From Devosia sp. (lineage in GTDB: Bacteria; Pseudomonadota; Alphaproteobacteria; Rhizobiales; Devosiaceae), in contig JBGTUK010000001.1 in assembly GCA_041939225.1 (NCBI GenBank), forward strand, positions 1-52,336: a stretch of DNA of 52,336 nt, written 5' to 3'. The notes under the pieces were generated by a model that worked only from the letters and a program-made list of their open reading frames with translations, did not search any database and was not told the origin of the DNA. This document shows, one piece after another, positions 6,762-42,190 of the stretch. The first letter of the stretch is position 1, and the number at the start of each line of letters is the position of its first letter. The position numbers were made by a program, and so were the translations under genes.

Positions 6762-6763
6762 GC

Positions 6764-6788: not shown

Positions 6789-7397
6789 TCATTCGGGCTT
6801 GCGCGCCACCAGATCGACCAGCGCGGAGATTCCGCTATGCCGATTGCCTTCGCTTAGCTCGGCGTCATAGCTGCGCAACTCGACGATATCGAGCGCCGAG
6901 AAGCAATCGGCCAGCAGCTCTTCGGTGTAGAGTTGCTTGAGGATTCCTGGACCACCGGTCTTATACTGCATTTGCTTGGGACCATACCCCTCGACCAGTA
7001 GCAGGCCACCGGGCGCCAATGTGCGGATCATGCCTGCAAAGATGGCGTCACGCATGGCCGGTGGTGCGAACTGGAAGAAGATACCCACAACGACATCAAA
7101 CTGATCTTCTGGCCAGCGATAGTCTGCAATGTCGGCCAGTTCCGTCGTCAGGGCCACGCCGCGCTTTTCGGCAAGCCGCCGCGCCTTTTCAAGCCCGACA
7201 GGCGATGCATCGACAGAAGTAACCTCCAGGCCCTGCTCCGCCAGCCAGACGCCATTCCGGCCTTCACCATCGGCGATGGCAAGTGCGTTGCCGTAACCGG
7301 CCAGACGTTCACGCTGGGCGGCCAGAAAGGCATTGGGCGCTTCGCCGAACACATATTCGTCCGTGTCGTAGCGTTCGTCCCAGAAGCTCTTGGCCAT
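6789..7397 (-). CDS. Class I SAM-dependent methyltransferase (TehB/thiopurine MT-like)
   Basis: Starts MAKSFWDERY; motif I LAIADGEGRNGVWLA; LAPGGLLLVEGY. Start lies 4 bp after the tamB stop. Confidence 0.85.
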   Translation of the reverse strand: MAKSFWDERYDTDEYVFGEAPNAFLAAQRERLAGYGNALAIADGEGRNGVWLAEQGLEVTSVDASPVGLEKARRLAEKRGVALTTELADIADYRWPEDQFDVVVGIFFQFAPPAMRDAIFAGMIRTLAPGGLLLVEGYGPKQMQYKTGGPGILKQLYTEELLADCFSALDIVELRSYDAELSEGNRHSGISALVDLVARKPE

Positions 7398-23989: not shown

Positions 23990-25093
23990 TTATGACCCTC
24001 GATGATCACCTGAACCGCCCCTCCCCCTATCAGGGGGATGTTGGGTGGGGGTACCCTCCTCCGACCGGTAATGGTGCTCCCCACCCTGCCAGTCCCGCAC
24101 GGTAAAGCACCCGTCTGCCCCTGTAATCGAAGCCGCGCCGATATCCGTCTTGCCATACCCACCCGGAATATCGAGCACATAGACCGGCTGGCACAGCCCC
24201 GAAATCCGCCCGCGCAACGCCTGCACCAGACGCTGTCCTTCCTCGATCCCGACACGGAAATGCCCCGTACCGGGCGCTAGATCCGGGTGATGCAGGTAAT
24301 AGGGCCGGATACGGTTTTCGACGAAACCGCGCATCAACGCCGCCAAGGTCTCGACGTCATCATTGACGCCCTTGAGCAGCACGCTCTGGCTGATTAGTGC
24401 GATGCCACCGGCCAGCATCAGATCAAAACCAGCTTTCGCCGCATCGGTCAGTTCGCGCGGGTGATTGGCATGCACGGCGAGATAGGTTGTCTTGCCGCTC
24501 GCGGTCAGCGCGGCCACCATCGCCTCGTTGATCCGCTCCGGCTCAACCACCGGCACCCGCGTATGAAAGCGGACAACTTTGACGTGCTCGATACCCGCCA
24601 GCCGCTCCATCAGGTCACGCAACCGGCGGGGCGACAGCACCAGCGGATCACCACCGGTCAGGATCACCTCCCAGATTTCGCTATGTGCTGCGATATAGCC
24701 GATGGCCGCATCCAGCTCTGCCGAATTCAGCGTCCCCAGCCCTTGTGGCCCGACCATTTCCCGCCGAAAGCAGAACCGGCAATAGACGGGGCACACATGC
24801 ACCGCCTTGAGCAAGACCCGGTCGGGATAACGATGCACGATCCCGTCCACCGGCGAGTGGGTCAGATCGCCGATCGGATCAGCCCGCTCTTCTGGCGTCG
24901 TGTTCAATTCATCGGCCGTAGGCACGAATTGCCGCGCAATCGGGTCGTCGGGATCACCTCGATCAATCAGGTCCAGCACTGCCGGCGTAATGCCAATAGC
25001 GTATCTTTCGGCGACCTTATCGAGCGCGGCGTTCGGCGCAACAAGCCCATCGGCCTGCAAATCCGCAACGGATTTGAGCGATGAGACCTTCAT
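23990..25093 (-). CDS. epmB: EF-P beta-lysylation protein EpmB (lysine 2,3-aminomutase-like radical SAM)
   Basis: HRYPDRVLL, CPVYCRFCFRR, ILTGGDPL, QSVLLKGVND and PYYLHHPD; ATGA overlap with the epmA stop. Confidence 0.9.
   Translation of the reverse strand: MKVSSLKSVADLQADGLVAPNAALDKVAERYAIGITPAVLDLIDRGDPDDPIARQFVPTADELNTTPEERADPIGDLTHSPVDGIVHRYPDRVLLKAVHVCPVYCRFCFRREMVGPQGLGTLNSAELDAAIGYIAAHSEIWEVILTGGDPLVLSPRRLRDLMERLAGIEHVKVVRFHTRVPVVEPERINEAMVAALTASGKTTYLAVHANHPRELTDAAKAGFDLMLAGGIALISQSVLLKGVNDDVETLAALMRGFVENRIRPYYLHHPDLAPGTGHFRVGIEEGQRLVQALRGRISGLCQPVYVLDIPGGYGKTDIGAASITGADGCFTVRDWQGGEHHYRSEEGTPTQHPPDRGRGGSGDHRGS
24018..24053 (+). repeat. Small palindromic (REP-like) repeat, copy 2, inside the 3' end of epmB
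   Basis: CCCCTCCCCCTATCAGGGGGATGTTGGGTGGGGGTA; matches copy 1. Confidence 0.75.
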
Positions 25094-26139
25094 TCCCCCA
25101 CCGGCGCCCACAGCACCGCCTCGATCCGCTGCGCACCGGTGGCCAGCATCACCAACCGGTCGAACCCGAGAGCAACCCCACTGGCCTCGGGCATGAAATC
25201 AAGCGCGGCTAGAAAATCTTCGTCAATTGGATAGCGTTCCCCATAAAGGCGCTGCTTTTCTGCCATTTCCGCCTCGAACCGCACGCGCTGCTCGGCAGCG
25301 TTTGTCAATTCGCCAAAGCCATTGGCCAGTTCGACGCCGGCTGCATAAACCTCGAAACGTTCCGAAACCCGTCCATCCCCCGGCACGCGCCGCGCCAGCG
25401 CCGCTTCACAGGCAGGATAGCGATCCAGCACAGTCACGCGCCCATTGCCCAGTTCCGGCTCGACTTTCTCCACCAGCACATGCGTAAACAGATAGCTCCA
25501 GCGTCTTTCCTCGGGCAGCGCCATGCCTGCTCGCACCAATTGCTCGGCCAGCGCCGCATCATCGGGTTCGCCGTCGTCATCCATGGTCGCCAACAGGTCG
25601 ATGCCCGCAAAGCGCTCGAAAGCCTCGGCCACGCTGATCCGCTCTGCTTCGGCAAGCGGATCGCAAAGCCGGTCGCGAAAAGTGAACCGCGCAATTCCCG
25701 TCACCTCTGCCGCCAGCCGGATCATGGCCAGCGTATCGGCGATAATAGCCTCATAGGGGGCGCCCGCCCGATACCATTCGAGCATGGTGAATTCGGGATG
25801 GTGCAGAGCGCTGCGCTCGCGATTGCGCCAGACATGCTGCAGGCTCGCAATCCGGCTCTCCCCGGCGGCCAGCAGCTTCTTCATGGTGAATTCGGGCGAG
25901 GTATGCAGGTACATGCCCTGCCCCACCCCGTCATTGCCGATCATCTGCGTACCAAAGGCGTGCAGATGCGCTTCATTGCCAGGCGAGCGCTGCAGACCTG
26001 GCGGATCGACAATCAGGAAGTCCCGCTCGGCCAGCCAGCCACGCAGGCGGGCCTCGATCCGCGCCCGCGCCAGCAGCGCCGGCCGCCGGTCAGCATGGCG
26101 GTCGGGATGCCACCAGGGCGATGTCTGGGATGCCGTCAT
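25090..26139 (-). CDS. epmA: EF-P lysine aminoacylase EpmA (GenX/PoxA)
   Basis: [43 protein letters not shown] and [10 protein letters not shown]; LysRS catalytic domain without an anticodon domain. Confidence 0.95.
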
Positions 26140-26270
26140 TGATGGGTTTCTTGCCGTCCGGTCTGGCGAAAGGGCGCGGAATACTGTATCGGGCGCACCA
26201 CATAGACATATTCCGGCGCCCGGATGGCCCTGCCTCTAGCCCGCGCCAACGATACGAACAAGGAAGAAAT

Positions 26271-26840
26271 ATGGTCAAGGTCATCGCCTCGTCGCTACGC
26301 AAAGGCAATGTCGTCGAACAGGACGGCAATTTGCATGTCGTGCTAACGGCGGAAAACGTCCACCCCGGCAAGGGTAATTCGATCACCAACGTCAACATGC
26401 GCCGCATCACTGACGGCGTGAAGGTCGTTGGCCGCTGGCGTACGGTCGAAATGGTCGAAAAGGCCGACGTGGACGACCGCGAGTACGACTATCTTTATTC
26501 CGATGGCGAGGGCCACCATTTCATGGAGCCTCAGACCTATGAGCAGATCACCGTCTCCGACGACGTGATCGGCGACCAGAAGGCCTATCTCACCGATGGC
26601 ATGAAGGTGCATCTGATGACCCATGAGGGCATCGCGCTGTCCATGGAGCTGCCACAGCGCCTGACGTTTGAAATTGTGGAGACCGAGCCGGTGGTGAAGG
26701 GCCAGACCGCCTCTTCTTCCTACAAGCCTGCGGTTCTCAACAACGGTCTGCGCGTCATGGTCCCGCCCCATATCGGCACCGGCACCCGCATTGTCATCCT
26801 CACCGAAGACAATTCCTACGTCGAACGCGCCAAGGACTGA
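26271..26840 (+). CDS. efp: Elongation factor P
   Basis: RBS AGGAAG before ATG 26271; loop HPGKG with the modifiable Lys; [12 protein letters not shown]...[10 protein letters not shown]...YVERA. Confidence 0.97.
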
Positions 26841-28814: not shown

Positions 28815-29249
28815 TTATTGTGCTCGGAACAGGCTGCGGTGATAGCCGACCATGGCCCGCTGCGGCCAGAGCGATATATTATCGGGCAACACCATATTGC
28901 GCCCATGCGCATCGCTTGCTTCCACCGGCTCGGAGACGATTTCAGGATGTGAAGTATAAGCGCAATAGGCGTCGCTGATCAGCAGATGGCCCTTGCTCAG
29001 CAGTCCAGCCACTACTGTGTCCACAACAACGGCATTGTCCGGGGCCATACGGCCACCATGTTCCAGGGGTTGAAACAGGAATACTTCGAGATGTTCGTCG
29101 GCTTCGTCTGCAGCGTAGCTCTTCCCGGTCACGGCACAGCGCCGGTTATAAGTTTCCAGCATGAGCTGCCGAAATGACACAGCGTCATCCAGCGCAAAGC
29201 CGCGCTGGATGCCCTCGGCAAACCCTACAGAACGGACTCGATCGGCCAC
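28815..29249 (-). CDS. Degenerate HNH-endonuclease-like protein
   Basis: FRQLMLETYNRRCAVTG and C-terminal P...P....YHR match alphaproteobacterial HNH proteins, but the catalytic His positions are substituted. GTG 29249 has a G-rich RBS; alternative start TTG 29306. Confidence 0.55.
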   Translation of the reverse strand: MADRVRSVGFAEGIQRGFALDDAVSFRQLMLETYNRRCAVTGKSYAADEADEHLEVFLFQPLEHGGRMAPDNAVVVDTVVAGLLSKGHLLISDAYCAYTSHPEIVSEPVEASDAHGRNMVLPDNISLWPQRAMVGYHRSLFRAQ

Positions 29250-29341
29250 CGGAATTCCCCCATCAGGGAAAACACTATGACTTTTTGACCATGAGACAAT
29301 GGCCAATCTGCCGTTGATCAGACTGTTATCGATGACAGACT

Positions 29342-30292
29342 CTACCGCCCAACCGTTTCGCGATAATGCCTAAGGACTTTTCCGGCATCGACGCCTGTGC
29401 AGACGGTCTGAACTGGCCGATTTGCCCAATCCGGATGCCCACCCTTGCGAGATTCAGGCATCTGAATAGTCTGGCCAACCGCCACCCCGTCACGCACCAC
29501 GAGAACCGGCCCCCGGCGGGTTTCGAACCATTCCGGATGAAGGGCATAGGTTACTGCCAACAGATCGTGCCCGACCACGCCGGAAAGTCCCATCATTTCC
29601 TTGTAAAAGCGGGCATAGTGCTCGCACATCTGGGCCAGGAGGGCGCCATTCTCGCCCACCTCGCGTGACAAGGTCTCAAGATAGGCGGTGTCCAGAATGA
29701 TGTCGTGGGTCACATCGAGCCCCACCACCACAACGGGCCAGTCCGCCGCAAAAATCTCGTCGGCGGCGACTGGATCGCCATGAATATTGGCTTCCGCCGC
29801 CGGCGTGATATTGCCGCTCCGACCCTGATAGCCAAATGCGCCGCCCATGATGACCACCTGCTTGGCCAGCTTGGCCACCTCAGGCTCGGCGCGCAGCGCC
29901 AGGGCCAGATTGGTCATGCGACCGACTGCGATGATGCTGATTTCGCCCGGATGGGCTTTGAGCATATCGATGATGAACTGGCTGGCGTCACCGGGCGCCA
30001 ACCCGTCTTCGTCCACCGGCGGAATTTCAATCTCGCCCAGCCCGTTGACGCCATGAACGATCACCGGCTCGGCCTTCTCGACCCCATCCAGCGTCTTGCC
30101 AGCCCCCTGCACCACCGGCGCAGACAACCCGAACCGCTCCTTGAGAAACAGGGCGTTACGTGTGGTTGTGGCCAGGTCGGCATTGCCAACCACAGTTGTG
30201 ATGCCCAGCAGGTCGATCTCCGGCAGCTTGCTCAGGTAAAGCAGCGCCATGGCATCGTCGATGCCGGGATCGGTATCAAAAATAACTTTCAT
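29342..30292 (-). CDS. Nucleoside hydrolase (IU-NH family)
   Basis: DTDPGIDD Ca-binding motif; HGVNGLG; AEANIHGDPVAA; GLDVT; HDLLA. Confidence 0.92.
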   Translation of the reverse strand: MKVIFDTDPGIDDAMALLYLSKLPEIDLLGITTVVGNADLATTTRNALFLKERFGLSAPVVQGAGKTLDGVEKAEPVIVHGVNGLGEIEIPPVDEDGLAPGDASQFIIDMLKAHPGEISIIAVGRMTNLALALRAEPEVAKLAKQVVIMGGAFGYQGRSGNITPAAEANIHGDPVAADEIFAADWPVVVVGLDVTHDIILDTAYLETLSREVGENGALLAQMCEHYARFYKEMMGLSGVVGHDLLAVTYALHPEWFETRRGPVLVVRDGVAVGQTIQMPESRKGGHPDWANRPVQTVCTGVDAGKVLRHYRETVGR

Positions 30293-30411
30293 CGTCTCGT
30301 TCGCTTTCGTGCCGGCCCCTTTGGATCCGGAATCCGGGATAGGCTATATCCCTTGTTATTCTTATGTATCGACCGTGCTCTAACATGAAGCGGGTTGACT
30401 ATCGATAGTTT

Positions 30412-30427
30412 TTGACCAAACGATCAA
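30412..30427. promoter_or_regulatory. RutR-like operator in the nucleoside hydrolase / fgd divergent region
   Basis: TTGACCAAACGATCAA flanked by T/A tracts; resembles the RutR box TTGACCAnnTGGTCAA; a TTGACT -35-like hexamer lies at 30395. Confidence 0.65.
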
Positions 30428-30458
30428 AAATCGATTGTCGCAGGTGGGAGGGACGACC

Positions 30459-31460
30459 ATGCGTTTCGGGTACAAGGCTTCAGCCGAACAGTTCGGACCC
30501 AACGATCTGCTCCGTTTTTCGATAGAGGCCGAGCAGGCAGGTTTTGACTCCGTCTTCGTCTCCGACCATTTCCAGCCCTGGAAACACACCGACGGGCACG
30601 CCCCCTTTGCGCCGGGCTGGATGTCCGCCGTGCTGGCCCGTACCGAAAAAATCACGCTTGGCACCTCCGTCCTCACCCCAACCTTTCGTCTGCATCCCAG
30701 CGTGGTAGCCCATGCCTTTGGCACTATGGGCGCCATGTTTCCTGGCCGCGTCATCCTTGGCGTCGGCACTGGCGAAGGGCTCAACGAGGTGCCCGCCACC
30801 GGAATGGCGTGGCCCGAACTCAAGGAGCGCTCGGCCCGGCTGCGCGAGGCGGTCAGGCTGATCCGCCAGCTCTGGTCAGAGGACCGGGTGAGCTTCGAGG
30901 GCGAATACTACAAGACCGTCAATGCCACAATTTATGACAAGCCGGCTGAGCCGGTGCCGATCTATATCGCCGCCGGCGGCCCGCTCAACGCCAAATATGC
31001 CGGCCTCGCCGGCGACGGCTTCATCTGCACCTCGGGCAAAGGCGCCGAACTCTATGTCGATCAGCTCCTGCCCAATGTGGCTGCCGGCCGGGCCGACAGC
31101 TCCCTCAAGGACAAGCCATTCGAGCGCATGATCGAGGTCAAGGTCTCGTTCGACACCGACGCCCAACGCGCCCTTGAGGACACCCGCAACTGGGCCGCCT
31201 TGTCGCTCTCCGCCGAAGAAAAGCATTCGGTCAAGGATTCAGAAGAGATGGAACGGCTGGCCGACGCGCTCCCCATCGAACGTGTCGCCAAGCGCTGGAT
31301 CGTTTCCTCCGACCCCGATGAGCACGTCGCGCAGATAAAGACCTATATCGACTACGGCTTCGACCATCTGGTGTTCCACGCCCCCGGCACCGACCAGAGC
31401 CGCTTCCTTGGGCTCTATGCGAAAGAGATTCTGCCAAGGCTTCGAAAGTTGGTCGGATGA
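30459..31460 (+). CDS. fgd: F420-dependent glucose-6-phosphate dehydrogenase
   Basis: [66 protein letters not shown] and HLVFHAPG, all characteristic of mycobacterial Fgd. Confidence 0.92.
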
Positions 31461-32269
31461 CCCCACGCCTATCTGTCTGGGGCATCACCGGCATCCCCGA
31501 AATCTCCCCTAACGATAACCTCGTTGCGCTGATCGCCGAGGCGATCACGACACAGTCCAACGCCGACCCGGATTTGGCACTGCAATCGGGCGATATCCTC
31601 GTCGTCACCTCAAAGATCGTCTCCAAGGCTGAAGGCATGCAGGTGCCCGCGGCCGAACGCGAACAGGCCATCGCTGCCGACACGGTCCGGGTGGTGGCCG
31701 AACGCGTGCATCCCGGCGGCACCTTCCGCATTGTCGAGACTCGCCAGGGCCTGGTCATGGCCGCCGCTGGCATCGACATGTCCAATGTTCCCGAAGGCAC
31801 CGCCCTGCGCCTCCCCGCCGACCCGGACGCGTCCGCCCGTCGGCTCTGCGAGGGTTTGCGCGACAAGGTCGGACTGGAGATCGGCGTCGTGGTGACGGAC
31901 ACCATTGGCCGCGCCTGGCGTATTGGCCAGACCGACATGGCCATCGGCGCCGCCGGTGTGCAACTGACGGACGATCTGCGCGGTGCCAATGATGCCAATG
32001 GCCGGCCGTTGCATGTCACCCAGGCGGTCATTGTCGACGAGATCGCCGGCGCCGCCGATCTGGTCAAGGGCAAGACGACCGGAATACCCGTTGCCGTGGT
32101 GCGCGGGCTGGGCCGCTACGTTACCGATCTCGACTCGCCCGGCGCCCGTACCCTGAGCCGCACGGGTGATGACGACATGTTCCGCTTCGGGTCCGCCGAA
32201 GCCTATCGCCTTGGCTATGAAGCAGCCATGGCGGAAATGAACTCACGCAAAAAGCAGAAGCAGGACTGA
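31457..32269 (+). CDS. cofE: Coenzyme F420-0:L-glutamate ligase (stand-alone CofE)
   Basis: [16 protein letters not shown]; AAAGIDMSN; LPADPDASA; [12 protein letters not shown]; [13 protein letters not shown]. No C-terminal nitroreductase domain. ATGA overlap with fgd. Confidence 0.92.
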
Positions 32270-32271
32270 CC

Positions 32272-33210
32272 ATGCGTCACCTCGGCCGTCTTTCGTTCAT
32301 CTTGCCCCTCCTGGCCCTCCCCGCCCAGGCTAACGCCTATCCCGTGATCGTGGACAATTGCGGCCATACAATCACCTTTGACCAAGCGCCCGAACGGGTC
32401 GTCACCATCAAGTCAACGGCAACCGAAATGCTGCTTGCGCTTGGCCTTGGCGACCACATTGTCGGCGTCGGCTTCCAGGATGCCCCCCTGCCGCCGCATC
32501 TGGCCCTGGCCGGCGCGGGCCTACCAGTCCTCTCCGACAAATTGCCCAGCCAGGAAGTCGTGCTCGAGGTCGAACCCGACCTCATCTATGGCGGCTGGGA
32601 AAGCAATTTCGCCGCGGATGGCGCCGGTGAGCGCTCGACACTCGCAACGTTTGGCGTCGCCACCTATGTCGCCCCTGCCGCCTGTCGTTCGATCAAACCG
32701 GCCAAGCTGACATTCGACCATCTCTTTGACCAAATCGACGAATTGGGCACCATTTTCGAGGTAGGCGATGCGGCCGCTCGCCTCGTCGCCGATCAGCAGG
32801 CGCTCCTCAAAGCCATCACACCAGACACACGCGAACTGACCGCATTGTGGTATTCTTCCGGCACCAAGACCCCCTATGTGGGCGCTGGCAGCAACGCTCC
32901 GGCCATGATCATGGAGGCCCTTGGCCTGCAGAACATCTACGCCGAAATCGATGAAGGCTGGACCTCGGCTTCCTGGGAAGCCATCGTCGACGCCAATCCC
33001 GATGTTATCATTCTGGTCGACGCCGCCTGGAATTCAGCCGAGCAGAAGCGGACACTGCTGGCCGAAAATCCAATCACCAGCCAGCTCGACGCGGTCATCA
33101 ACCAGCGTTACCTGATCATTCCGTTTCCAGCCTCCGAGGCTGGAATCCGCAACGTCCCCGCGACCGTTGATATGGCCGCGCAACTGGCCAAGCTGACCTT
33201 TGGGGAATGA
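32272..33210 (+). CDS. Type III (iron-siderophore/cobalamin class) ABC substrate-binding protein, putative F420-0 binding protein
   Basis: YPVIVDNCGHTITFDQAPERVVTIKSTATEMLLALGL; GWESNF; starts 2 bp after cofE. Context matches the proposed F420-0 importer family (TIGR03868, from recall). Confidence 0.75.
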   Translation: MRHLGRLSFILPLLALPAQANAYPVIVDNCGHTITFDQAPERVVTIKSTATEMLLALGLGDHIVGVGFQDAPLPPHLALAGAGLPVLSDKLPSQEVVLEVEPDLIYGGWESNFAADGAGERSTLATFGVATYVAPAACRSIKPAKLTFDHLFDQIDELGTIFEVGDAAARLVADQQALLKAITPDTRELTALWYSSGTKTPYVGAGSNAPAMIMEALGLQNIYAEIDEGWTSASWEAIVDANPDVIILVDAAWNSAEQKRTLLAENPITSQLDAVINQRYLIIPFPASEAGIRNVPATVDMAAQLAKLTFGE

Positions 33211-34217
33211 CGATCACGCATCGTCTCTCCCTGCCGGCCCTTACCGTCCTCCTTGTCGTCAGCGCTATCGCTGCGGTCACCTTCGGGCCGGCAGATATCA
33301 CCCCTGGGGAAGTCTGGTCGGTCATCGCACACCATCTCGGTCTTCTCCCAGAAAGTCCGGTTTCGCGACTGCGCGATGCGATCGTCTGGGAACTGCGCTT
33401 ACCGCGCGTGTTGACCGCTCTCGGGGTCGGCGCCGGCCTGGCGGTCTCCGGCGCCGTGATGCAGGCGTTGACCCGAAATCCGCTCGCCGATCCCTATCTC
33501 CTGGGCCTGTCCTCCGGCGCAGCACTGGGGGCCGTGCTTTTCCTGTTGCTAGGCTTCACCCTCCTTATGCCGCTCGGCGCCTTTCTCGGCAGTCTGGGCG
33601 CGCTGGCGCTTGCCCTGCTCATCGCCCAACTCCTGGGAGGCGCCACCCCAAGCCGGGCCATCCTCGCCGGTATCAGCATCGCAGCCCTGGCCTCAGCCGC
33701 CACCTCCTTTCTTATCTTCTGGTCGGCGACAGGCGATAGCTATCGCGAAATCCTGAGCTGGTTGATGGGCACGCTCTCGGGCTCGACATGGTCGGATGCG
33801 GCCCTGGTCCATCTTGCGCTGGTCGCGTGTCTGCCGATCATCCTGGTCAGTGGCCGGGCGCTCGATGCCTTTGCTTTTGGTGACACCGCCGCCGCCAGCC
33901 TGGGGATAGACGTGCCTCGCCTGCGCTGGACCTTGCTGGGGGCGACGGCGCTGCTGACCGGCATCATGGTGGCAATTGGCGGCGCCATTGGCTTTGTCGG
34001 TTTGGTTGTGCCGCATGCCGTGCGCTTGGCGGTCGGCTCGGCGCATCGCAAACTGCTGCCCCATGCAATGCTGGCCGGCGCCATCTTCATGCTCTGGACC
34101 GACACGGCCGCGCGTACCCTGTTCGATCCGCGCGAATTGCCCGTCGGCATTATCACGGCCCTGATCGGCGCACCGGTTTTCCTGGCCATTCTCCTGCGCT
34201 ACCGGAGGATCACATGA
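33207..34217 (+). CDS. FecCD/BtuC-type ABC permease, putative F420-0 importer
   Basis: LRLPRVL, RNPLADPYLLGLSSGA, GAIGFVGLVVPH and ELPVGIITALIGAP; ATGA overlap. Confidence 0.85.
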   Translation: MTITHRLSLPALTVLLVVSAIAAVTFGPADITPGEVWSVIAHHLGLLPESPVSRLRDAIVWELRLPRVLTALGVGAGLAVSGAVMQALTRNPLADPYLLGLSSGAALGAVLFLLLGFTLLMPLGAFLGSLGALALALLIAQLLGGATPSRAILAGISIAALASAATSFLIFWSATGDSYREILSWLMGTLSGSTWSDAALVHLALVACLPIILVSGRALDAFAFGDTAAASLGIDVPRLRWTLLGATALLTGIMVAIGGAIGFVGLVVPHAVRLAVGSAHRKLLPHAMLAGAIFMLWTDTAARTLFDPRELPVGIITALIGAPVFLAILLRYRRIT

Positions 34218-35017
34218 CCCTCTCGGTTGCCGGGCTGTCGGTCGCAAAATCCGGCACGCCAATCCTGACTGATGTGAGCTTCTCGGCTCCGGCAGGCCGC
34301 ATTACCGGGCTGATCGGGCCCAACGGCGCCGGCAAATCCACCCTATTAGCCGCCCTGCTCGGCCTCTTGCAGGGTGAGGGCACCGTTCGCTTCGAGGGCC
34401 ACGACCTGCCCAACATGCGCCGGCGCGATCGGGCACAGCTCCTGGCCATCGTCGAACAGTCCGCTGCCACCGAGGAGCGCCTGAGCGTGCGCGATGTCGT
34501 GGCTCTGGGCCGCATCCCCTACGAGGCGGCATGGCAATCCGAACCCAGTCCATGCGATCAGGCCATCATCGCCCAAGCGTTGGCGGACACCGGCACCACA
34601 GGTTTTGCCGCCAGACGGTTCACCACCCTGTCCGGCGGCGAACAACAGCGCGTGCATGTTGCGCGAGCGCTAGCCCAGCAGCCGCACCTGCTGCTACTCG
34701 ACGAGCCGACCAGCCACCTCGACATTCGTGCCCAGCTTCAGCTTCTCGCACTGCTTCGGCAAAAAGCCGCTGCGGGAATGAGCATATTAGTGGTCCTGCA
34801 TGATCTCAATCTGGCGGCCCGCTTCTGCGACCACCTGGTCGTGCTGGCAAATGGCCGAACGGCTGCCGAGGGGGCACCTACCGATATCCTGACCCCCGAA
34901 CTGCTGCGTACGGTCTATGGCGTCGCCGCCAGGCTGGTCCCCGACAGCGCCAAGGGCCATCCCTTGATCGTCCTTGACGAAGCGATCGCGGAAGACCACT
35001 GGCAATTAACCGATTGA
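34214..35017 (+). CDS. FepC/BtuD-type ABC ATP-binding protein, putative F420-0 importer
   Basis: GPNGAGKST; LSGGEQQRV; LLLDEPTSHLD; LHDLNLA; ATGA overlap. Confidence 0.88.
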   Translation: MTLSVAGLSVAKSGTPILTDVSFSAPAGRITGLIGPNGAGKSTLLAALLGLLQGEGTVRFEGHDLPNMRRRDRAQLLAIVEQSAATEERLSVRDVVALGRIPYEAAWQSEPSPCDQAIIAQALADTGTTGFAARRFTTLSGGEQQRVHVARALAQQPHLLLLDEPTSHLDIRAQLQLLALLRQKAAAGMSILVVLHDLNLAARFCDHLVVLANGRTAAEGAPTDILTPELLRTVYGVAARLVPDSAKGHPLIVLDEAIAEDHWQLTD

Positions 35018-35063
35018 CAATCGTGCCTCAGCCACTCAAAAATTTGATCGACTGGTCAAATTT
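35014..35063 (+). promoter_or_regulatory. Sigma70-type promoter with an adjacent RutR-like operator upstream of the LLM gene
   Basis: TTGACA at 35014. AAATTTGATCGACTGGTCAAATTT at 35040-35063; its core reverse-complements to TTGACCAGTCGATCAA, same arms as the site at 30412. Confidence 0.7.
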
Positions 35064-35092
35064 CCAGATCTACGGGAGCGCAGAGGGACACA

Positions 35093-36094
35093 ATGGAATT
35101 CGGCATCACCTTCAAGGGCTTTATCGAGCATGAGCGGGCCCGCTATCTGGTTCGCGCCGCCGAATATGCCGGCTTCTCTTATTGTTGGTTCTATGACAGC
35201 CACATTCTCTGGCGCGATTGCTACGCCGCCATTGCTATGTGCATGGAACACACCACCGACATGCGTTTCGGTCCGCTGGTCACCAATCCCGATGTGCGCG
35301 ACTGGTCGGTTGCCGCCTCGATCTTCGGCTCGCTTTCCAAGCAATCCGGCGGTCGCTTCGATCTCGCCGTGGGCCGTGGCGACTCATCCATGCGCGTCAT
35401 GGGTAAAAAGCCTGCAACCCTCAAGCGCGTCGCCGAATTCATCGACAAGACTAAAGCCATGGTGCGCGGCGAGGAAGTCACCTATGGCGAAATTCCCGCG
35501 GCGGTGAAATTTCCCTGGGCAGTCGGCCACGACATGCCGAGCTGGATCGCCGCCTACGGCCCGCTGGCCCTGAAAACCGCGGGCCAGCACGCCGAGGGTG
35601 TCGTGTTGCAGATTGCCGATCCGGGGCTTTGCAAATGGTTCACCGACCAATGCATCGATGCTGGCAAGGAAGCCGGCAAGGACATGTCCGGCTTCCGCTC
35701 CATGGCTGCCGCGCCGGCCTATTTCGGCGACAAGAAACGCGCCATTGAACATGTGAAATGGTTCCCGGCCATGGTTGGCAACCATGTCGCAGACATTGTC
35801 GAGAAGTACGGCGCCGATAGCGACAAGGTGCCATCAAGCCTGACCAGCTATATCGAAAAGCGCCGTGGCTACGACTACTCCAAGCATGGCCAGGCCGATA
35901 ATCCCTATCTCGATTTCATCACCGACGATGTGGTGGAAAGCTTCTGCGTGCTCGGCGAACCTGAGGATCACATCAAGAAGTTGCACGAGCTGGAGGCGGC
36001 GGGTGTCACCCAGTTCAACATCTATCTCGACAGTGGCGATGAGGAAGAGATCATCGCTAATTACGGAAGGCACGTCATTCCCGCCTTCCGCTGA
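35093..36094 (+). CDS. Luciferase-like (LLM) Mer-related, putative F420-dependent oxidoreductase (CPS_4043/TIGR03842-like family)
   Basis: WFYDSHILW, GPLVTNP.VRDWSVAAS, GRGDSS, AAYGPLAL, WFPAMVGNHVADIV, GYDYSKHG and GVTQFNIYL match this family from recall. Confidence 0.8.
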   Translation: MEFGITFKGFIEHERARYLVRAAEYAGFSYCWFYDSHILWRDCYAAIAMCMEHTTDMRFGPLVTNPDVRDWSVAASIFGSLSKQSGGRFDLAVGRGDSSMRVMGKKPATLKRVAEFIDKTKAMVRGEEVTYGEIPAAVKFPWAVGHDMPSWIAAYGPLALKTAGQHAEGVVLQIADPGLCKWFTDQCIDAGKEAGKDMSGFRSMAAAPAYFGDKKRAIEHVKWFPAMVGNHVADIVEKYGADSDKVPSSLTSYIEKRRGYDYSKHGQADNPYLDFITDDVVESFCVLGEPEDHIKKLHELEAAGVTQFNIYLDSGDEEEIIANYGRHVIPAFR

Positions 36095-36099
36095 AGTCT

Positions 36100-36135
36100 A
36101 AAAGGGCGCGCCGCACGGTGCGCCCTTTTTGTTTT
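36100..36135 (+). terminator. Intrinsic terminator
   Basis: AAAAGGGCGCGCCG-ca-CGGTGCGCCCTTTTTGTTTT directly after the LLM stop. Confidence 0.8.
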
Positions 36136-36273
36136 GGCATCAACGCCTTGTCGCGACCTTGGAAGCGCGAACAATTGGGGAATGATGCCGAGACCACTTC
36201 CACAATCCTCTCTGCGACGGCTAGATGACACCAGGGAGGCGACGACCAACAATCAAGCAAACGGGGAACGAAA

Positions 36274-37260
36274 ATGGGAACTCTCAATCGCCGCACTCTG
36301 ATCGCGGCACTCGGGCTGACCACCGCGCTCAGCCTCACCGGCGCCTCCTTGGCGCAGGACACGCCCAAGGTTGCTGCTATCTGGACCGTACCGGTCGAAC
36401 AGCAATGGGCAAGCCGCCTGCATAATGCGCTGGTCGCCGCCGAAGAGGCCGGCGAGATCGACTATGTCTACTCGGAAAACATCACCAATACCGACTATGA
36501 GCGCGTCATGCGCGAATATGCCGAACAGGGCATCGCCCTGATGGTCGGCGAGGCTTTCGGTGTCGAGCAGCCTGCCCGTACCGTGGCCGCAGACTATCCC
36601 GAAATCAGCTTCCTCATGGGGTCGTCCCTGCCGCCGGTCGAACCGAACTTCGCCACCTTCGACAATTTCATCCACGAGCCCAGCTATCTCACCGGCATCA
36701 TCGCCGGCATGAAGACCGAAACCGACCAGATCGGCATGGTGGGCGGGTATGCCATTCCTGAAGTGAACCGGCTGATGCACGCCTTCATGGCCGGCGCGCT
36801 CTCCGTCAATCCGGACGTGACTTTCTCAGTCAGCTTCATCAACTCCTGGTATGATCCGCCCAAGGCCAAGGAAACCGCCTTTGCCATGGTCGATGCTGGC
36901 GCCGACATCCTCTACGCCGAACGCTTCGGGGTGTCCGACGCCGCCAAGGAGCGTGGCATCTTCGCTATCGGCAATGTCATCGACACCGCCGCCGACTATC
37001 CAGGCACCATTCTCGCCTCTGCCCTCTGGCATGGCGAACCGATGATCAATCAAGCTATCGCCGATGTGAAGGCGGGCACCTTCGAGGCCAAGGACTACGG
37101 CGTCTATGCCTTCATGGAATATGGCGGCTCGTCCATGGTGGTCGATGAGGAACTGGCCGGCTCCGAAGCTGTGGAAGCGGCAAAGGCCGTCGAAGCCTCC
37201 ATTCTCGATGGCTCATTCGTGGTCGAAATCAACGACAGTGAACCGACCTCGACGCAGTAA
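36274..37260 (+). CDS. BMP family ABC substrate-binding protein (nucleoside/nucleobase)
   Basis: N-terminal NRRTL signal (possibly Tat-like); IHEPSYLTGIIAG; GMVGGYAIPEV; FINSWYDPPKAKE; GADILY. Confidence 0.88.
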   Translation: MGTLNRRTLIAALGLTTALSLTGASLAQDTPKVAAIWTVPVEQQWASRLHNALVAAEEAGEIDYVYSENITNTDYERVMREYAEQGIALMVGEAFGVEQPARTVAADYPEISFLMGSSLPPVEPNFATFDNFIHEPSYLTGIIAGMKTETDQIGMVGGYAIPEVNRLMHAFMAGALSVNPDVTFSVSFINSWYDPPKAKETAFAMVDAGADILYAERFGVSDAAKERGIFAIGNVIDTAADYPGTILASALWHGEPMINQAIADVKAGTFEAKDYGVYAFMEYGGSSMVVDEELAGSEAVEAAKAVEASILDGSFVVEINDSEPTSTQ

Positions 37261-37263
37261 GTG

Positions 37264-37299
37264 CCCCCTCACCGAGCCTCCCCCTCAAACAGGGGGAGG
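37264..37299 (-). repeat. Small palindromic (REP-like) repeat, copy 3, inverted
   Basis: CCCCCTCACCGAGCCTCCCCCTCAAACAGGGGGAGG: same CCTCCCCCT/AGGGGGAGG stem with the tail on the opposite side. Confidence 0.6.
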
Positions 37300-37325
37300 A
37301 TAGGAGGTAAACGAAGCAGGACACC

Positions 37326-38873
37326 ATGACCAAACCCAATCTCCTGCTCTCGCTAACCAACATCACCAAGCGGTTCGGCGCCCTTGTCGCTAACGACCAC
37401 ATTTCTTTCGACCTTCGCGAGGGCGAAATCCTTGCCCTCTTGGGAGAGAACGGCGCCGGCAAGACCACGCTGATGAACATCCTGTTCGGCCATTATGTGC
37501 AGGACGAGGGCACGGTCCGCGTTCGGACCAATGGCGGGGATATGGCAACCTTGCCGCCCGGCTCGCCGGGCGCGGCCCTGTCGGTCGGTGTTGGCATGGT
37601 GCACCAGCATTTCACTCTGGCCGAAAATCTCTCGGGCCTCGACAATATTCGCCTTGGCACCGAGGCGCTGCTCTCCTTGGGGCGACGCACCCCCGCGCGC
37701 GCCAGGATTGAGACCATCATTGCCGAGAGCGGGTTGGAGGTCGATATCGACCGTCGCGTCGCCGACCTCACGGTGGGCGAGAAGCAGCGCATTGAAATCC
37801 TCAAGGCACTCTATCGCGATGCCCGCGTCCTCATTCTGGATGAACCCACTGCCGTTCTGACACCCCAGGAAGCCGAGGGGCTGTTTGTGGTGTTGCGGCG
37901 GCTGGCGGCCAATGGCCTTGGGGTCATCTTTATTTCGCACAAGCTGGGCGAGGTGCTGGCCGTCTCGCACCGCATCATGGTGCTGCGTGCGGGCAGGAAA
38001 GCCGGTGAATTGACCACCGCCGAAGCCGACCGTCGTGCCATTGCCGATCTCATGGTCGGCAAGGCGGTCGCTCAGGTCACCCGCACACCGGGTTACCCCG
38101 GGGACCCTTTGCTTGAGCTGGACCATGTAACCCTGGCCAAGTCGGGCAGCCGCAGCGCCGTAACCGACGCCAGCTTCACCCTGCGCGCCGGAGAAATCAC
38201 TGGTCTGGCGGGAGTTTCCGGCAATGGACAGGCGGGCATCGCGGCCCTGCTCTCCGGCCTGGCAGTGCCCGACACGGGCACTATGCGGCTCTTCGGCGCG
38301 CCGGTGACCCGGGCCGATCCGCGCAGTCTCGTGCAACAGGGCGTCGCCCGCATGCCCGAGGATCGTCAGCACGACGGCGTTGTCGGAACCATGAGTGTTG
38401 CAGATAATATCGCGATCGAGGAAATTCGCTCCCCTGGGTTCTCGCGGCTCGGCCTGCTCGACAACACTGCCATGCGGGCCCGCGCCGAGAGCGCCATTGC
38501 GGCCTATGATGTGCGTTGTCCTGGACCGGACGCCGAGGCGCGGCTGCTCTCGGGCGGCAATGTGCAAAAGCTCATTATCGCTCGTGTGCTCGAACGCGAA
38601 CCGCGTATCATTCTGGCCAACCAGCCCACGCGCGGACTCGATATCGGCGCCCAGGCCGAAGTGCATCGCCGTATTATTGCTGCGCGCGATCGGGGCGCCG
38701 CGGTCCTGGTGATTTCCGAAGATCTCGACGAACTCTTCGCCCTGGCTGACCGGTTCCTCGTAATCCATGCAGGAGAGGTGGCCGAGGCCGGTCCGGCCGA
38801 TACACTCGACCGCGCCACCATCGGTCTGATGATGGCCGGACAGTCCCGCACCACGGAGCCCCTTGCCCAATGA
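37326..38873 (+). CDS. Nucleoside ABC transporter ATP-binding protein (two ABC domains, NupA/YufO-like)
   Basis: GENGAGKTTL, GMVHQHF, LILDEPTAVLTPQE, AGVSGNGQ, LSGGNVQK and QPTRGLD. Confidence 0.92.
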   Translation: MTKPNLLLSLTNITKRFGALVANDHISFDLREGEILALLGENGAGKTTLMNILFGHYVQDEGTVRVRTNGGDMATLPPGSPGAALSVGVGMVHQHFTLAENLSGLDNIRLGTEALLSLGRRTPARARIETIIAESGLEVDIDRRVADLTVGEKQRIEILKALYRDARVLILDEPTAVLTPQEAEGLFVVLRRLAANGLGVIFISHKLGEVLAVSHRIMVLRAGRKAGELTTAEADRRAIADLMVGKAVAQVTRTPGYPGDPLLELDHVTLAKSGSRSAVTDASFTLRAGEITGLAGVSGNGQAGIAALLSGLAVPDTGTMRLFGAPVTRADPRSLVQQGVARMPEDRQHDGVVGTMSVADNIAIEEIRSPGFSRLGLLDNTAMRARAESAIAAYDVRCPGPDAEARLLSGGNVQKLIIARVLEREPRIILANQPTRGLDIGAQAEVHRRIIAARDRGAAVLVISEDLDELFALADRFLVIHAGEVAEAGPADTLDRATIGLMMAGQSRTTEPLAQ

Positions 38874-39940
38874 GCCTCCGCCTCGACCCCCGCGAACATG
38901 CCCCCTTGCCGTTGAGCCTGCTCGTCTCTCTGCTCGCCGGTCTCGTCGCCCTGCTGCTGGTGGCCATTCCAGTCATGGCAGCGGGCGCCAACCCGTTCGA
39001 GGCCTATGTGCTCATGGCGCAGGGGGCATTCGGTTCAATGTTCGCCCTGTCCGAAACCCTTAATCGTGCCACCCCTCTCATCCTTACCGGCCTCGCCGCC
39101 GCCGTGGCCTTTCGCGCCAGGCTCTGGAACATCGGTGCCGAGGGTCAGCTCTACATGGGTGCCCTTGCAGCCGTGCTGGTTGGTTCGGGATTTCTACAGC
39201 TTCCGGGCCCGCTCGCCATCCCCGCCATCATGCTGGCCGGCTTCCTTGCAGGTGGCTTGATGATGGTGGTTCCGGCCATGCTCAAGCAACGCTTCGGCGC
39301 CGATGAGGTGGTCATCACTCTGCTGCTCAATTTTGTGGTCATCCTCTTCATCCAGATGCTGATCGAAGGCCCGCTCAAGGACCCGCTGGCCATGGGCTGG
39401 CCGCAATCGGTTCCGCTCGTCGCGGAGGCCAGGTTCGACAAGCTGATCCCGCGACTGCGCATGCATTGGGGGCTGGTCATTGGCCTTGTGGCCGCGCTCA
39501 TCCTCTGGCTCATGGTCAAGCGCACCGTGCTCGGCTTCGAAATCAAGGCGGTCGGTGAGAACAAGGCTGCGGCCCGCTTTGCCGGCATTCCGGTCGACGC
39601 CACCATGCTCAAGGTTGCCCTGATTTCGGGCGGCTTGGCGGGTCTGGCCGGCGTTGGCGAGGTGGCCGGAGTGAAAGGTTATCTCTCGGCCGATCTCTCG
39701 CCCGGGTTCGGCTATTCTGGCATTGTCGTAGCCATGCTCGCCGGCCTTTCGCCCATCGGCAGTGTCCTGGCGGCCATCTTTATTGCCGCCGTGTTCGTGG
39801 GCGCGGACTCGATGAGCCGGGCCACCGGCATTTCCAACTATCTCGCCGATCTGGTCGTGGCCCTGTCCCTGCTCTGTGTATTGGTCGGCAGCTTCTTCCT
39901 GCGCTTCCGGATGCAATGGCAATCTCGGCAGGAGCTCTGA
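38870..39940 (+). CDS. Nucleoside ABC transporter permease (NupB-like)
   Basis: ATPLILTGLA, WNIGAEGQLYMG, EVVITLLLN and GYSGIVVAML; ATGA overlap. Confidence 0.9.
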   Translation: MSLRLDPREHAPLPLSLLVSLLAGLVALLLVAIPVMAAGANPFEAYVLMAQGAFGSMFALSETLNRATPLILTGLAAAVAFRARLWNIGAEGQLYMGALAAVLVGSGFLQLPGPLAIPAIMLAGFLAGGLMMVVPAMLKQRFGADEVVITLLLNFVVILFIQMLIEGPLKDPLAMGWPQSVPLVAEARFDKLIPRLRMHWGLVIGLVAALILWLMVKRTVLGFEIKAVGENKAAARFAGIPVDATMLKVALISGGLAGLAGVGEVAGVKGYLSADLSPGFGYSGIVVAMLAGLSPIGSVLAAIFIAAVFVGADSMSRATGISNYLADLVVALSLLCVLVGSFFLRFRMQWQSRQEL

Positions 39941-39944
39941 GCCA

Positions 39945-40892
39945 ATGGATACCCTTCTTGATATCTTCAGCTCCGCCAATTTCTGGGCCGCCGCCATTCG
40001 CATCGCCACCCCGCTGATTTTTGGCGTGCTGGGCGCCCTGATCTGCGAACGCGCCGGTGTGCTCAATCTTGGTATCGAAGGCATCTTCGTGGCCGGGGCC
40101 ATGGCCGGCTGGCTCGCCGTCTATCTTGGTGCGGGTCTCTGGGGCGGCGTGCTGATCGCCGCGCTAGCGGGCGCCATCTTCGGCTTGTTGCATGCCATTC
40201 TCACGGTCATTCTGGGCCTCTCCCAACATGTCTCGGGCATCGGCATTACCCTGCTGGCGACCAGCGCCAGCTATTTCACCTACCGCACCACATTGCCCGA
40301 CGTCTCTTCCCCGCCGCGCATTGCACCATTCCAGCCCATCGCCGTCCCCGGCCTGTCCGACTTGCCCTTTATCGGCCCGGCTCTGTTCCAGCAAACCCTG
40401 TTCACCTGGCTGGCCCTGGCCCTAGTGGCACTCGTCGCCTTCGTGCTCTATCGCACGCCGCTGGGGCTCGCTATCCGCGCGGTTGGTGACAACCCGGCCT
40501 CGGTCGAAGCACAGGGGCTTTCGGTCCGCGGCCTGCGGATCGGCGCGGTGGTGATCGGTTCGGCCCTCATGGCGCTGGGCGGCGCCTTTCTCACCATGTC
40601 GGCCTTTGACGCCTTCTTCTTCGGCATGGTCAATGGCCGTGGCTGGATCTGCATCGCCCTGGTGGTCTTTGCCTCGTGGCAACCCGGCAAGGCGCTGCTT
40701 GGCGCTCTGCTGTTTGGTGCCTTTGACGCCTTCCAGATCCGTCTTCAGGCCGAGATCGGCCAAGTCGTGCCCGGCCAGGTCTTCCTGATGATGCCCTATC
40801 TGCTTTCTATCCTGGCCCTGGTGTTGGTCGCGCGCAAAGCCGACTATCCAAGAGCCCTGCTTCAGCCCTGGACCAAGGGGCAGCGCCACTAA
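39945..40892 (+). CDS. Nucleoside ABC transporter permease (NupC-like)
   Basis: ATPLIFGVLG, ERAGVLNLGIEG, GRGWICIALV and PYLLSIL. Confidence 0.9.
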   Translation: MDTLLDIFSSANFWAAAIRIATPLIFGVLGALICERAGVLNLGIEGIFVAGAMAGWLAVYLGAGLWGGVLIAALAGAIFGLLHAILTVILGLSQHVSGIGITLLATSASYFTYRTTLPDVSSPPRIAPFQPIAVPGLSDLPFIGPALFQQTLFTWLALALVALVAFVLYRTPLGLAIRAVGDNPASVEAQGLSVRGLRIGAVVIGSALMALGGAFLTMSAFDAFFFGMVNGRGWICIALVVFASWQPGKALLGALLFGAFDAFQIRLQAEIGQVVPGQVFLMMPYLLSILALVLVARKADYPRALLQPWTKGQRH

Positions 40893-40906
40893 CTGCGGGA
40901 CCATCC

Positions 40907-42190
40907 ATGTTTGATCTCATGCTCACCAACGCCACCCTGCCTGACGGCCGCACCGGCATCGACATCGGCATCCAGCGCGACCGCATCGCGGCGCTCGAAC
41001 CCAAACTCGGGGGCGATGCTGCCGAGACGATCGATGCCGCCGGACAACTCGTCTCCCCGCCCTTTGTCGACTGCCACTTCCACATGGACGCCACGCTCTC
41101 GCTCGGACTGCCGCGCTACAATGAAAGCGGCCTCTTGCTCGAAGGCATCCAGATCTGGGGCGAGCTGAAACCGCTGCTCACCCAGGAGGCTGTGATCCAG
41201 CGCGCGCTGGACTATTGCGATCTCGCCGTCAGCCAGGGCATGCTCGCCATCCGCACCCATGTCGATATCTGCGACGACCGTCTGCTCGGCGTGGAGGCCC
41301 TGCTCGAGGTCAAAAAACAGGTCGCGCCCTATATCGATCTGCAACTCGTGGCGTTCCCACAGGATGGCTATTTCCGCTCTCCCGGCGCCGTAGATTTGCT
41401 CAATCGCGCGCTCGACATGGGTGTCGACGTGGTAGGGGGCATTCCACATTTCGAACGCACCATGGCCGACGGCGCGGCCAGCGTGAAAGCACTCTGCGAA
41501 ATTGCCGCCGAACGCGGTCTTCTGGTCGATCTGCACTGCGACGAGACCGATGATCCGCTCAGCCGTCATATCGAGACCTTGGCCTACGAAACCCAGCGCC
41601 TCGGCCTAGGCGGCCGGGTTAATGGCTCGCACCTGACCTCCATGCATTCCATGGACAATTATTATGTCTCGAAGCTGCTGCCGCTGATGGCCGAGGCCGG
41701 TGTCAGCGCCACCGCCAACCCGCTGATCAATATCGGCATTCAGGGTCGCCACGATACCTATCCCAAGCGCCGCGGCATGACGCGCATTCCCGAAATGCTG
41801 ACCTACGGCATCACCTGCGCCTTCGGCCATGACTGCGTCATGGACCCCTGGTATTCGCTGGGTCAGGGCGACATGCTCGAAGTGGCCTCAATGGGTTTGC
41901 ACGTGGCGCAGATGACCAGCCGCGACGCCATGCGCACCTGCTTCGACCTCGTCACCAAGGGCCCGGCCGAGATCATGCATCTCGATGGCTATGGCATTGA
42001 AATCGGCAACAAGGCCGACATGGTCCTGCTCCAGGCCGCCGACCCCATCGAAGCCATTCGCCTCAAGGCCACACGCTTGGCCGTCATCAAGTCTGGAAAG
42101 GTGATTGCATCCGCGCCGCGCCACGAAAGCGCGCTGTCACTGCCTGGACGCCCCAATTCCGTTGACGCCTCACGCGTCGGCCCGCGCTGA
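40907..42190 (+). CDS. codA: CodA-like cytosine / 5-methylcytosine deaminase (amidohydrolase)
   Basis: HxH (CHFHMD), IRTHVD, VAFPQDG, GGIPHFE, DLHCDETDD, GSHLTSM and FGHDC.MDPWY. Confidence 0.85.
   Translation: MFDLMLTNATLPDGRTGIDIGIQRDRIAALEPKLGGDAAETIDAAGQLVSPPFVDCHFHMDATLSLGLPRYNESGLLLEGIQIWGELKPLLTQEAVIQRALDYCDLAVSQGMLAIRTHVDICDDRLLGVEALLEVKKQVAPYIDLQLVAFPQDGYFRSPGAVDLLNRALDMGVDVVGGIPHFERTMADGAASVKALCEIAAERGLLVDLHCDETDDPLSRHIETLAYETQRLGLGGRVNGSHLTSMHSMDNYYVSKLLPLMAEAGVSATANPLINIGIQGRHDTYPKRRGMTRIPEMLTYGITCAFGHDCVMDPWYSLGQGDMLEVASMGLHVAQMTSRDAMRTCFDLVTKGPAEIMHLDGYGIEIGNKADMVLLQAADPIEAIRLKATRLAVIKSGKVIASAPRHESALSLPGRPNSVDASRVGPR

Follow-up and report, generated by a model that had tools for sequence, protein, structure and literature searches.

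Gene content and operators of the locus

We analysed a 52,336-nucleotide stretch of Devosia sp. DNA (the window), which is contig C1 of a 2.8-Mb assembly that is 67% complete (genome G000). A preliminary description of this DNA had proposed that positions 29,342 to 42,190 encode an F420-dependent system for pyrimidine breakdown, built around an oxidoreductase of the luciferase-like monooxygenase (LLM) type. Profile scores confirmed its gene inventory, with every named gene present in the family described; only the importer ATPase and the nucleoside hydrolase fell below their best NCBIfam cut-offs. The fgd gene (30459..31460, + strand; TIGR03554, 497 bits vs. a cut-off of 420) is followed on the same strand by cofE for a single-domain F420-0:glutamate ligase (31457..32269; TIGR01916, 223 vs. 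181 bits). The next three genes, also on the + strand, encode a putative F420-0 ATP-binding cassette (ABC) importer, namely a binding protein (32272..33210; TIGR03868, 420 vs. 392 bits), a permease (33207..34217; TIGR03869, 444 vs. 437 bits) and an ATPase (34214..35017) whose best match, TIGR03873, reached 322 bits, under the cut-off of 372. The LLM gene (35093..36094, + strand) encodes a Mer-like TIGR03842 protein (484.8 bits vs. 295.45), a predicted F420H2-dependent uracil/thymine reductase. The core module is fgd-cofE-ABC together with the LLM gene. A nucleoside hydrolase gene flanks it on one side, a BMP-family importer and a CodA-type deaminase on the other.

The same 16-bp RutR-type box, TTGACCA-NN-CGATCAA, precedes both fgd and the LLM gene, so the shared operator of the earlier proposal was borne out. 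The first copy (TTGACCA-AA-CGATCAA, 30412..30427, + strand) lies 47 nt before the fgd ATG, and the second (TTGATCG-AC-TGGTCAA, 35044..35059, - strand), 5' of the LLM gene, is an inverted copy of it. Both were assigned by comparison with TTGACCA-N2-TGGTCAA, which we take to be the RutR consensus. A reading as FNR boxes was rejected because the spacing is 16 bp, not the 14 bp of the FNR consensus. The pattern derived from the two boxes gave seven strand-matches at two or fewer mismatches vs. 0.85 expected; this pattern was fitted to its own two sites, and conservation across loci is the better test. Neighbourhoods were therefore compared over 81 loci, the window plus the best 80 relatives of the LLM protein (mostly Devosia, identity up to 100%). 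Sixty-eight of the 81 have a box scoring 12/14 or more ahead of the LLM gene. Among the other 13, the LLM gene lies inside an operon behind fgd or fno in 10, the exceptions being L054, L078 and L089. Where fgd is the first gene of its unit, it is always preceded by a box of 12/14 or better (53/53 loci, 19 of them perfect). The fgd box is missing in 10 loci ordered LLM-fgd-cofE, nine of which run on into the ABC genes, and there the single box before the LLM gene covers the unit. As background, the 12/14 level was reached in 12 of 426 windows upstream of other genes; nine of these are the fgd box seen from the divergent gene and two belong to one locus without fgd.

The operator at 35044 directly abuts a sigma70-like promoter (TTGACA-18-AAAAAT, 35014..35043, + strand; consensus match only, 10/12), the best-scoring site in the region, which would be a repressor arrangement. 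An intrinsic terminator-like hairpin 3' of the LLM gene (36100..36129, + strand; 13-bp stem plus T run) is the strongest of 13 such sites in the region.

The box is conserved at the promoters of pyrimidine-linked loci. It lies between a RutR-like tetR gene and pydD in 18/18 fetched pyd clusters and 1.3–2.3 kb upstream of the preA start in 12/12 PreA regions; in the PreA region examined in full it stands 70 nt before a PreT-like gene. Its place at the rutR/pydD promoter and upstream of preA gives independent support to the reading of the box as a mark of pyrimidine genes. RutR is listed as a regulator of pyrimidine catabolism in a source whose main text, as far as accessible, does not mention F420 (PMC5343134).

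Elsewhere in the source assembly, a cydB-like gene has a perfect TTGACCA-AT-TGGTCAA box immediately beyond its end (G000:C243:1544-1559), with further near matches on contigs C11, C104, C122 and C301.

Family and fold of the LLM oxidoreductase

The LLM protein has 333 aa and PF00296 as its sole Pfam domain. No FAD/NAD(P) or Fe-S domain was matched in Pfam, nor the dihydroorotate-dehydrogenase FMN domain that marks PydA/PreTA together with these; the protein would act like PydA/PreTA without belonging to that family. Its score with the Mer family TIGR03555 was 122 bits vs. a cut-off of 349, and the RutA family TIGR03612 was absent among the families matching it at E 1e-10 or better.

An AlphaFold model (predicted local distance difference test score 92, alignment of 23 rows) was compared with known structures. 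The nearest was Mer (Z 36.0, root-mean-square deviation (rmsd) 2.4, 307 residues aligned), with a Foldseek template modelling (TM) score of 0.83, and ranks 1–14 were all F420 enzymes. RutA appeared at rank 33 (Z 25.3, rmsd 3.0, 280 aligned). The solved Mer structures (PDB 1F07, 1Z69, 8QPL) match at Z 35–36 and TM 0.8 and share the Val of the cis-peptide site, the Asp at position D and the carboxamide at position C. The LLM protein differs from Mer in its low identity (26–28%), its score, a Thr in place of Glu6, and the lack of a methanopterin context. Membership in Mer was rejected on the score (122/349) and on this Glu6 to Thr change. Membership in RutA was rejected as well, with no family match at E 1e-10 and a fold far nearer to Mer. 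RutA shares the LLM superfamily, a pyrimidine substrate and RutR-type control; it differs in its oxidative FMN/O2 chemistry, in its 13–15% identity to the LLM protein at Z about 25, and in being a separate gene in 5/85 Devosia genomes.

In a sequence alignment to jMer, Val63, Asp97 and Gln173 of the LLM protein match F420- and substrate-site positions of Mer, the Val match to the cis-peptide site being one of sequence alignment, and all three residues are invariant in 167 family sequences. In the accessible part of the Mer structural study, Val62 belongs to the cis-peptide bulge, Asp96 to the substrate site and a carboxamide to position C, and Glu6 is catalytic (PMC11094777); residue 178 of jMer was counted as Asn in our alignment and is named Gln178 there. 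Seventy-six positions show conservation of 97% or more in each of the two clades of the family, among them D35-S36-H37, R95-G96-D97-S98, Y155-G156-P157, Q173, the V228-V236 run and H265. The invariant His37, Asp97, Gln173, Asn230, His231 and His265 are candidates in the search for the proton donor. We infer direct hydride transfer to C6 of the pyrimidine with protonation at C5. The uracil/dihydrouracil couple lies at about -260 mV. The F420 potential of -340 mV given in the accessible text of a review (PMC8498797) is below it, and reduction would therefore be favoured.

Two or three TIGR03842-like paralogues occur in some alphaproteobacteria (G437, loci L149 and L150; G120, loci L147 and L148). 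Some of them score below the cut-off and lack a pyd context, and they are candidates for other substrates. Three or four tandem RutA-family genes, each above cut-off, were seen in five of the 85 Devosia genomes: G006 (L326:7996-11274), G018, G029, G038 and G070. Those of G006 lie among amidase-like and ABC genes without a RutR-type box. They are possibly pyrimidine-like monooxygenases for different substrates.

Exchange with PreA and pyrimidine gene context

The distribution of the LLM gene was compared with that of PreA in 85 Devosia genomes, each at least 90% complete. Dihydropyrimidinase was present in 84 of them, TIGR03842 in 70 (in one case split over two contigs) and PreA in 15. Sixty-eight genomes carried the LLM gene only, 13 PreA only, two both and two neither (Fisher p 1.4e-11); of the two with neither, one is an assembly in 370 contigs, and from the other dihydropyrimidinase is missing as well. 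Since these relatives are not independent by kinship, we used a pair test on an rpoB tree of 76 genomes (six gave no match, three were left out as fragments shorter than 2 kb, and the genome of the window had no rpoB match). The tree is unrooted and gives changes of state without separating gain from loss: the LLM trait changes nine times and PreA 10 times. Among eight independent pairs differing in the LLM gene, PreA differed in the opposite sense in seven and in the same sense in none (sign test p 0.016). RutA was found in 5/85 genomes, and 63 of the 68 LLM-only genomes also lack it. These 63, without PreA and RutA, thus have no known first step of pyrimidine breakdown.

A second family gave a similar picture. 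It was chosen through G486, a Mesorhizobium-titled record that carries the LLM gene, and we take it to be Rhizobiaceae. Among its 251 sampled genomes, PreA was present in 0/11 LLM carriers vs. 209/240 others (p 9e-10); six of the 11 carriers were listed without a PreA match and five were absent from the match list. Dihydropyrimidinase was found in 11/11. Near-exclusion with PreA in two families strongly supports, at the genomic level, the proposal that the LLM enzyme replaces the NAD(P)H-dependent flavo-FeS dihydropyrimidine dehydrogenase, and this proposal came through all the genome-based checks first suggested for it. Because genomes hold the module or PreA and rarely both, the module would be an undescribed alternative first step of pyrimidine breakdown. 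In a class-wide sample, 9/400 genomes carry the LLM gene, eight of the nine with dihydropyrimidinase.

Two checks suggested with the replacement idea were run on the source genome. Dihydropyrimidinase was found (G000:C77, 617 bits vs. 393) together with a pyd-type ABC system on the same contig, which begins inside the cluster, and no PreA scored over the cut-off. Ureidopropionase and beta-alanine aminotransferase were not found in this 67% complete assembly. In the pyd transporter cluster of contig C77 (positions 557-7162), dihydropyrimidinase has additional permease genes to either side, and a pair of related binding proteins sharing 61% identity is encoded; this suggests two ABC sets.

The genes for the conserved later steps form a pyd cluster of their own, away from the LLM locus. 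Carbamoylase and an AptA-type aminotransferase were present in 18/18 fetched pyd clusters of relatives (one checked by family score). On a Leisingera plasmid, the operon cofG-cofH-cofD-cofC-cofE-npdG-LLM-tetR faces pntA-pntB-aminotransferase-carbamoylase-hydA. In Aquamicrobium (L085), cofGHDCE-fno-LLM lies between pydB and pydC, next to tetR, and in Paracoccus the same F420 operon ends in the LLM gene with no pyd genes nearby. Counting repeats once, 15 distinct cofG-headed operons were seen; the box before cofG scored 12/14 in seven and 11/14 in four, and four had none. Genome G332 shows the order box-LLM-nitrilase-dihydropyrimidinase. In two Streptomyces records hydA stands directly before the LLM gene, with a nitrilase-type gene and an aminotransferase upstream. 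Among the best 80 of 568 metagenome loci, all of one clade (P0006), 51 had a nitrilase-type hydrolase, 38 a dihydropyrimidinase, 47 a pyd-type ABC ATPase and 35 an aldehyde dehydrogenase; PreA was seen in none. One of these aldehyde dehydrogenases was checked and is methylmalonate-semialdehyde dehydrogenase (MMSDH). The nitrilase-type hydrolase would be the ureidopropionase.

In one PreA-bearing pyd cluster (L112:6597-8256, genome G044), two open reading frames (ORFs) lie between preA and the rutR-like gene; we take them to be manganese-catalase-like and NYN-like.

F420 supply, proposed pathway and alternatives

fgd was present in 71/81 loci and cofE in 73/81. In Devosia, the 70/85 genomes with the LLM gene are precisely those that have Fgd and the F420-0 binding protein. 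cofD was found in 0/86 Devosia genomes (controls positive), and cofG and cofC in 0/5 single-contig genomes. De novo F420 synthesis in Devosia was rejected on these counts. The exact co-occurrence of Fgd and the binding protein with the LLM gene and the absence of cofD from the genus make F420 salvage likely and support the earlier idea that the cassette is there to serve the LLM step. The same three importer families with cofE and fgd (TIGR03868/TIGR03869/TIGR03873) are known as a putative F420-0 importer set. As in that set, the host has no de novo synthesis genes and keeps cofE, and binding protein and permease score above their cut-offs, with the ATPase below. The set differs here in being alphaproteobacterial, in its pyrimidine-type operator and in its one-to-one association with a single client enzyme. 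The cargo is likely to be F420-0 or F420 and not FO, because a cell without CofC and CofD could not use FO. Judged by gene content, three supply designs would feed the LLM enzyme: synthesis with Fno, synthesis with Fgd, and predicted import with Fgd (Devosia, Pelagibacterium).

Devosia CofE is 45–52% identical to actinobacterial CofE (best plasmid matches) vs. 36–43% to alphaproteobacterial de novo CofE, and Devosia Fgd is 65–68% identical to Fgd of de novo loci. The best 120 of 2664 homologues of the importer binding protein included only close, Devosia-like matches, and plasmid matches were at most 37% identical. These values suggest a cassette of mosaic origin in which only CofE leans actinobacterial. 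One Devosia genome (G072, locus L325, C1:3622000-3641900) holds a second set, in which a further fgd-like gene (64%) and further cofE-F420-0 ABC genes accompany a different LLM gene, peptide-type ABC genes and a gene for a GntR-like regulator. We predict that the salvage cassette is reused there for a different F420 pathway. The cassette can thus serve other enzymes.

The proposed pathway would run as follows. A pyrimidine signal would relieve the repression exerted by the RutR-like TetR whose gene adjoins pydD. F420-0 made by other microbes would enter through the ABC system, CofE would add the glutamate tail, and Fgd would reduce the F420 with glucose-6-phosphate. The TIM-barrel LLM enzyme would then use F420H2 as the direct hydride donor to the 5,6 double bond, converting uracil or thymine to dihydrouracil or dihydrothymine, and the separate pydD-pydC-pydB cluster would hydrolyse the product, yielding ammonia, CO2 and beta-alanine (or beta-aminoisobutyrate). 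Bases would probably be supplied by the nucleoside hydrolase. The BMP importer and CodA, which stand outside the conserved module, may also supply them in the lineage of the window. We hold with good confidence that the TIGR03842 protein is an F420H2-dependent uracil/thymine reductase replacing PreTA/PydA, served by adjacent genes predicted to import, finish and recharge F420. The reductase assignment taken by itself appears probable to a similar degree, and salvage, if that assignment is granted, is also quite probable.

The reductive Pyd pathway is described with NAD(P)H (PydA/PreTA) and ferredoxin (PydAc) variants, and the accessible text does not mention F420 (PMC7332683). The predicted reaction has the same place in that pathway, with PydB, PydC, PydD and MMSDH genes downstream and a RutR-type box before the first-step genes. 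It differs in the unrelated fold, a luciferase-like TIM barrel, the predicted F420H2 hydride donor, the need for a supply operon, and a location often apart from pydBC. We also lean towards a broader statement: TIGR03842 would be a third type of chemistry, widespread, oxygen-stable and metal-free, by which reductive pyrimidine breakdown can begin; Devosia would be F420 auxotrophs for uracil/thymine degradation, capable of it only with cofactor taken up from their neighbours; and alphaproteobacterial F420 operons would serve largely the LLM reaction. No description of F420-dependent uracil/thymine reduction, or of TIGR03842/CPS_4043 with F420, was found in the literature outside subscription journals. 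fbi genes were noted in some Sinorhizobium strains, in the accessible text without a pyrimidine role being assigned (PMC8407117). A review calls it an open question, in the part accessible, for what reason Paracoccus and some other Alphaproteobacteria produce F420 in no more than trace amounts, for a "niche-specific role" (PMC8498797). An answer may lie in the alphaproteobacterial synthesis operons that end in the LLM gene, several Rhizobiaceae-type loci among them having the pyrimidine-type operator.

If correct, the proposed pathway would assign a role to a large orphan family. It would also supply the first step that pyrimidine catabolism lacks in many Alphaproteobacteria and, judging by context, in Actinomycetota. 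It would tie interspecies F420 cross-feeding to one named reaction; to our knowledge, Devosia would be the first such case. The long-predicted F420-0 importer would become testable by a simple growth phenotype, and a uracil reductase that is small and free of flavin could be of interest in biocatalysis and in the inactivation of 5-fluorouracil by microbes.

The reductase could hold with the salvage part wrong: the ABC system might carry another ligand, of the iron-siderophore/B12 class, or F420 or a substitute might arrive by an unrecognised route. The binding protein is a PF01497 protein, the ATPase stays below its family cut-off, the name of the importer family itself carries "putative", and no experimental F420 importer was found among the papers listed on F420-0 uptake. 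We consider this unlikely, since cofD is absent in 86/86 genomes, the binding protein has just the same distribution as fgd and the LLM gene, and relatives bearing cofGHDC have no match to the binding protein beside the LLM gene.

Several observations weigh against a uracil/thymine reductase under RutR-type control. The catalytic Glu6 of Mer is Thr6 in the LLM protein. Both enzymes occur in two of the 85 Devosia genomes, in two of the nine LLM carriers of the class-wide sample, and in G488, one of five further genomes. One of the nine class-sample carriers (G370) has no dihydropyrimidinase match. The preliminary description had called for a survey of homologue neighbourhoods. It found pyd operons in several lineages; in seven of the nine class-sample carriers (53–63% identity), neither a pyd gene nor a promoter box lies within about 10 kb. 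The metagenome loci counted above are from a single clade at about 41% identity and lie on short contigs. In G072, the second fgd-cofE-ABC set goes with another LLM gene and has no box. The TetR protein beside pydD in relatives has RutR as its best match, below the cut-offs (224/368 and 209/230). Neither a RutR-like gene nor pydC or pydD was found in the 67% complete source assembly, which is likely a matter of its incompleteness. From the seven class-sample carriers without pyd context and from G370, some TIGR03842 members may act on other substrates.

The LLM enzyme might accordingly be an F420H2 reductase within the pyrimidine regulon whose main substrate is another: a nucleoside (uridine), some modified base, or a ring of purine origin, for example yanthine. 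Genomes with both enzymes and carriers without pyd context would fit this, as would the hydrolase, which recurs as a neighbour and also lies downstream of the LLM gene. An F420 yanthine reductase was proposed for Chloroflexota in the accessible text of PMC12507026; it is likewise an F420 LLM enzyme taking the part of a PydA-like reductase and de-aromatising a nucleobase ring, but it belongs to a purine pathway and is a prediction only. The repeated exchange with PreA, on the tree and in the second family, points to the same step, and the operons with dihydropyrimidinase, carbamoylase or nitrilase, and MMSDH lack only the first step. We regard another main substrate as improbable.

Reversal in vivo, that is, oxidation of dihydrouracil or dihydrothymine with F420 to salvage bases, is very improbable. 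Luciferase-like hydride transferases (LLHT) can be bidirectional, according to the accessible text of PMC8498797. However, the partner Fgd in Devosia makes F420H2, Fno in Leisingera adjoins pntAB, an NADPH source, the F420 potential lies below that of the uracil couple as noted above, and dihydropyrimidinase would drain the reduced base. A RutA-like FMN/O2 monooxygenase opening the pyrimidine ring oxidatively, with the F420 genes as bystanders, would suit the shared superfamily, the PF00296 match and the same regulator type, but it is scarcely credible given the absent RutA family match, the much greater nearness of the fold to Mer, and LLM genes co-operonic with F420 synthesis or salvage and Fgd or Fno in several lineages.

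The flanking genes had been included in the system as first described. The nucleoside hydrolase (29342..30292, - strand; inosine-uridine-preferring type, PF01156, 278 bits) is below all Rih/UriH cut-offs. It occurs in 20/81 loci, divergent from fgd in 16, directly after the LLM gene in three and about 8 kb away in one. It recurs in two positions and is plausibly linked to the module, where it would likely free pyrimidine bases from nucleosides. The BMP-family importer (36274..40892, + strand; PF02608, PF02653) comprises a binding protein (36274-37260), an ATPase (37326-38873) and two permeases (38870-39940 and 39945-40892), and is followed by the CodA-type cytosine deaminase (40907..42190, + strand; PRK07572, 782 bits vs. 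438). The BMP protein is present in 8/81 loci and codA in 9/81, both confined to the nearest relatives, and the BMP gene has no box ahead of it (best 8–10/14 in eight loci). Because they lie behind the terminator, lack a box and occur in only 8–9 of the 81 loci, we place both outside the core, as lineage-specific neighbours; the BMP-family importer is probably a separate unit. The genes from hydrolase to codA are contiguous, as described, but probably not one regulon, and a single 13-kb regulon was rejected on the same grounds. CodA has Cys310 at the position of E. coli Asp314 in an alignment to CodA structures, and CodA-type enzymes with Cys there presumably accept 5-methylcytosine.

Next to the hydrolase, a 163-aa ORF (28815-29306, - strand) has no NCBIfam or Pfam match and recurs beside the hydrolase in 9/81 loci; our impression, a loose one, is of a degenerate HNH domain. 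Upstream of the locus (23990-26840), the window carries efp with epmA- and epmB-like genes, an ordinary arrangement.

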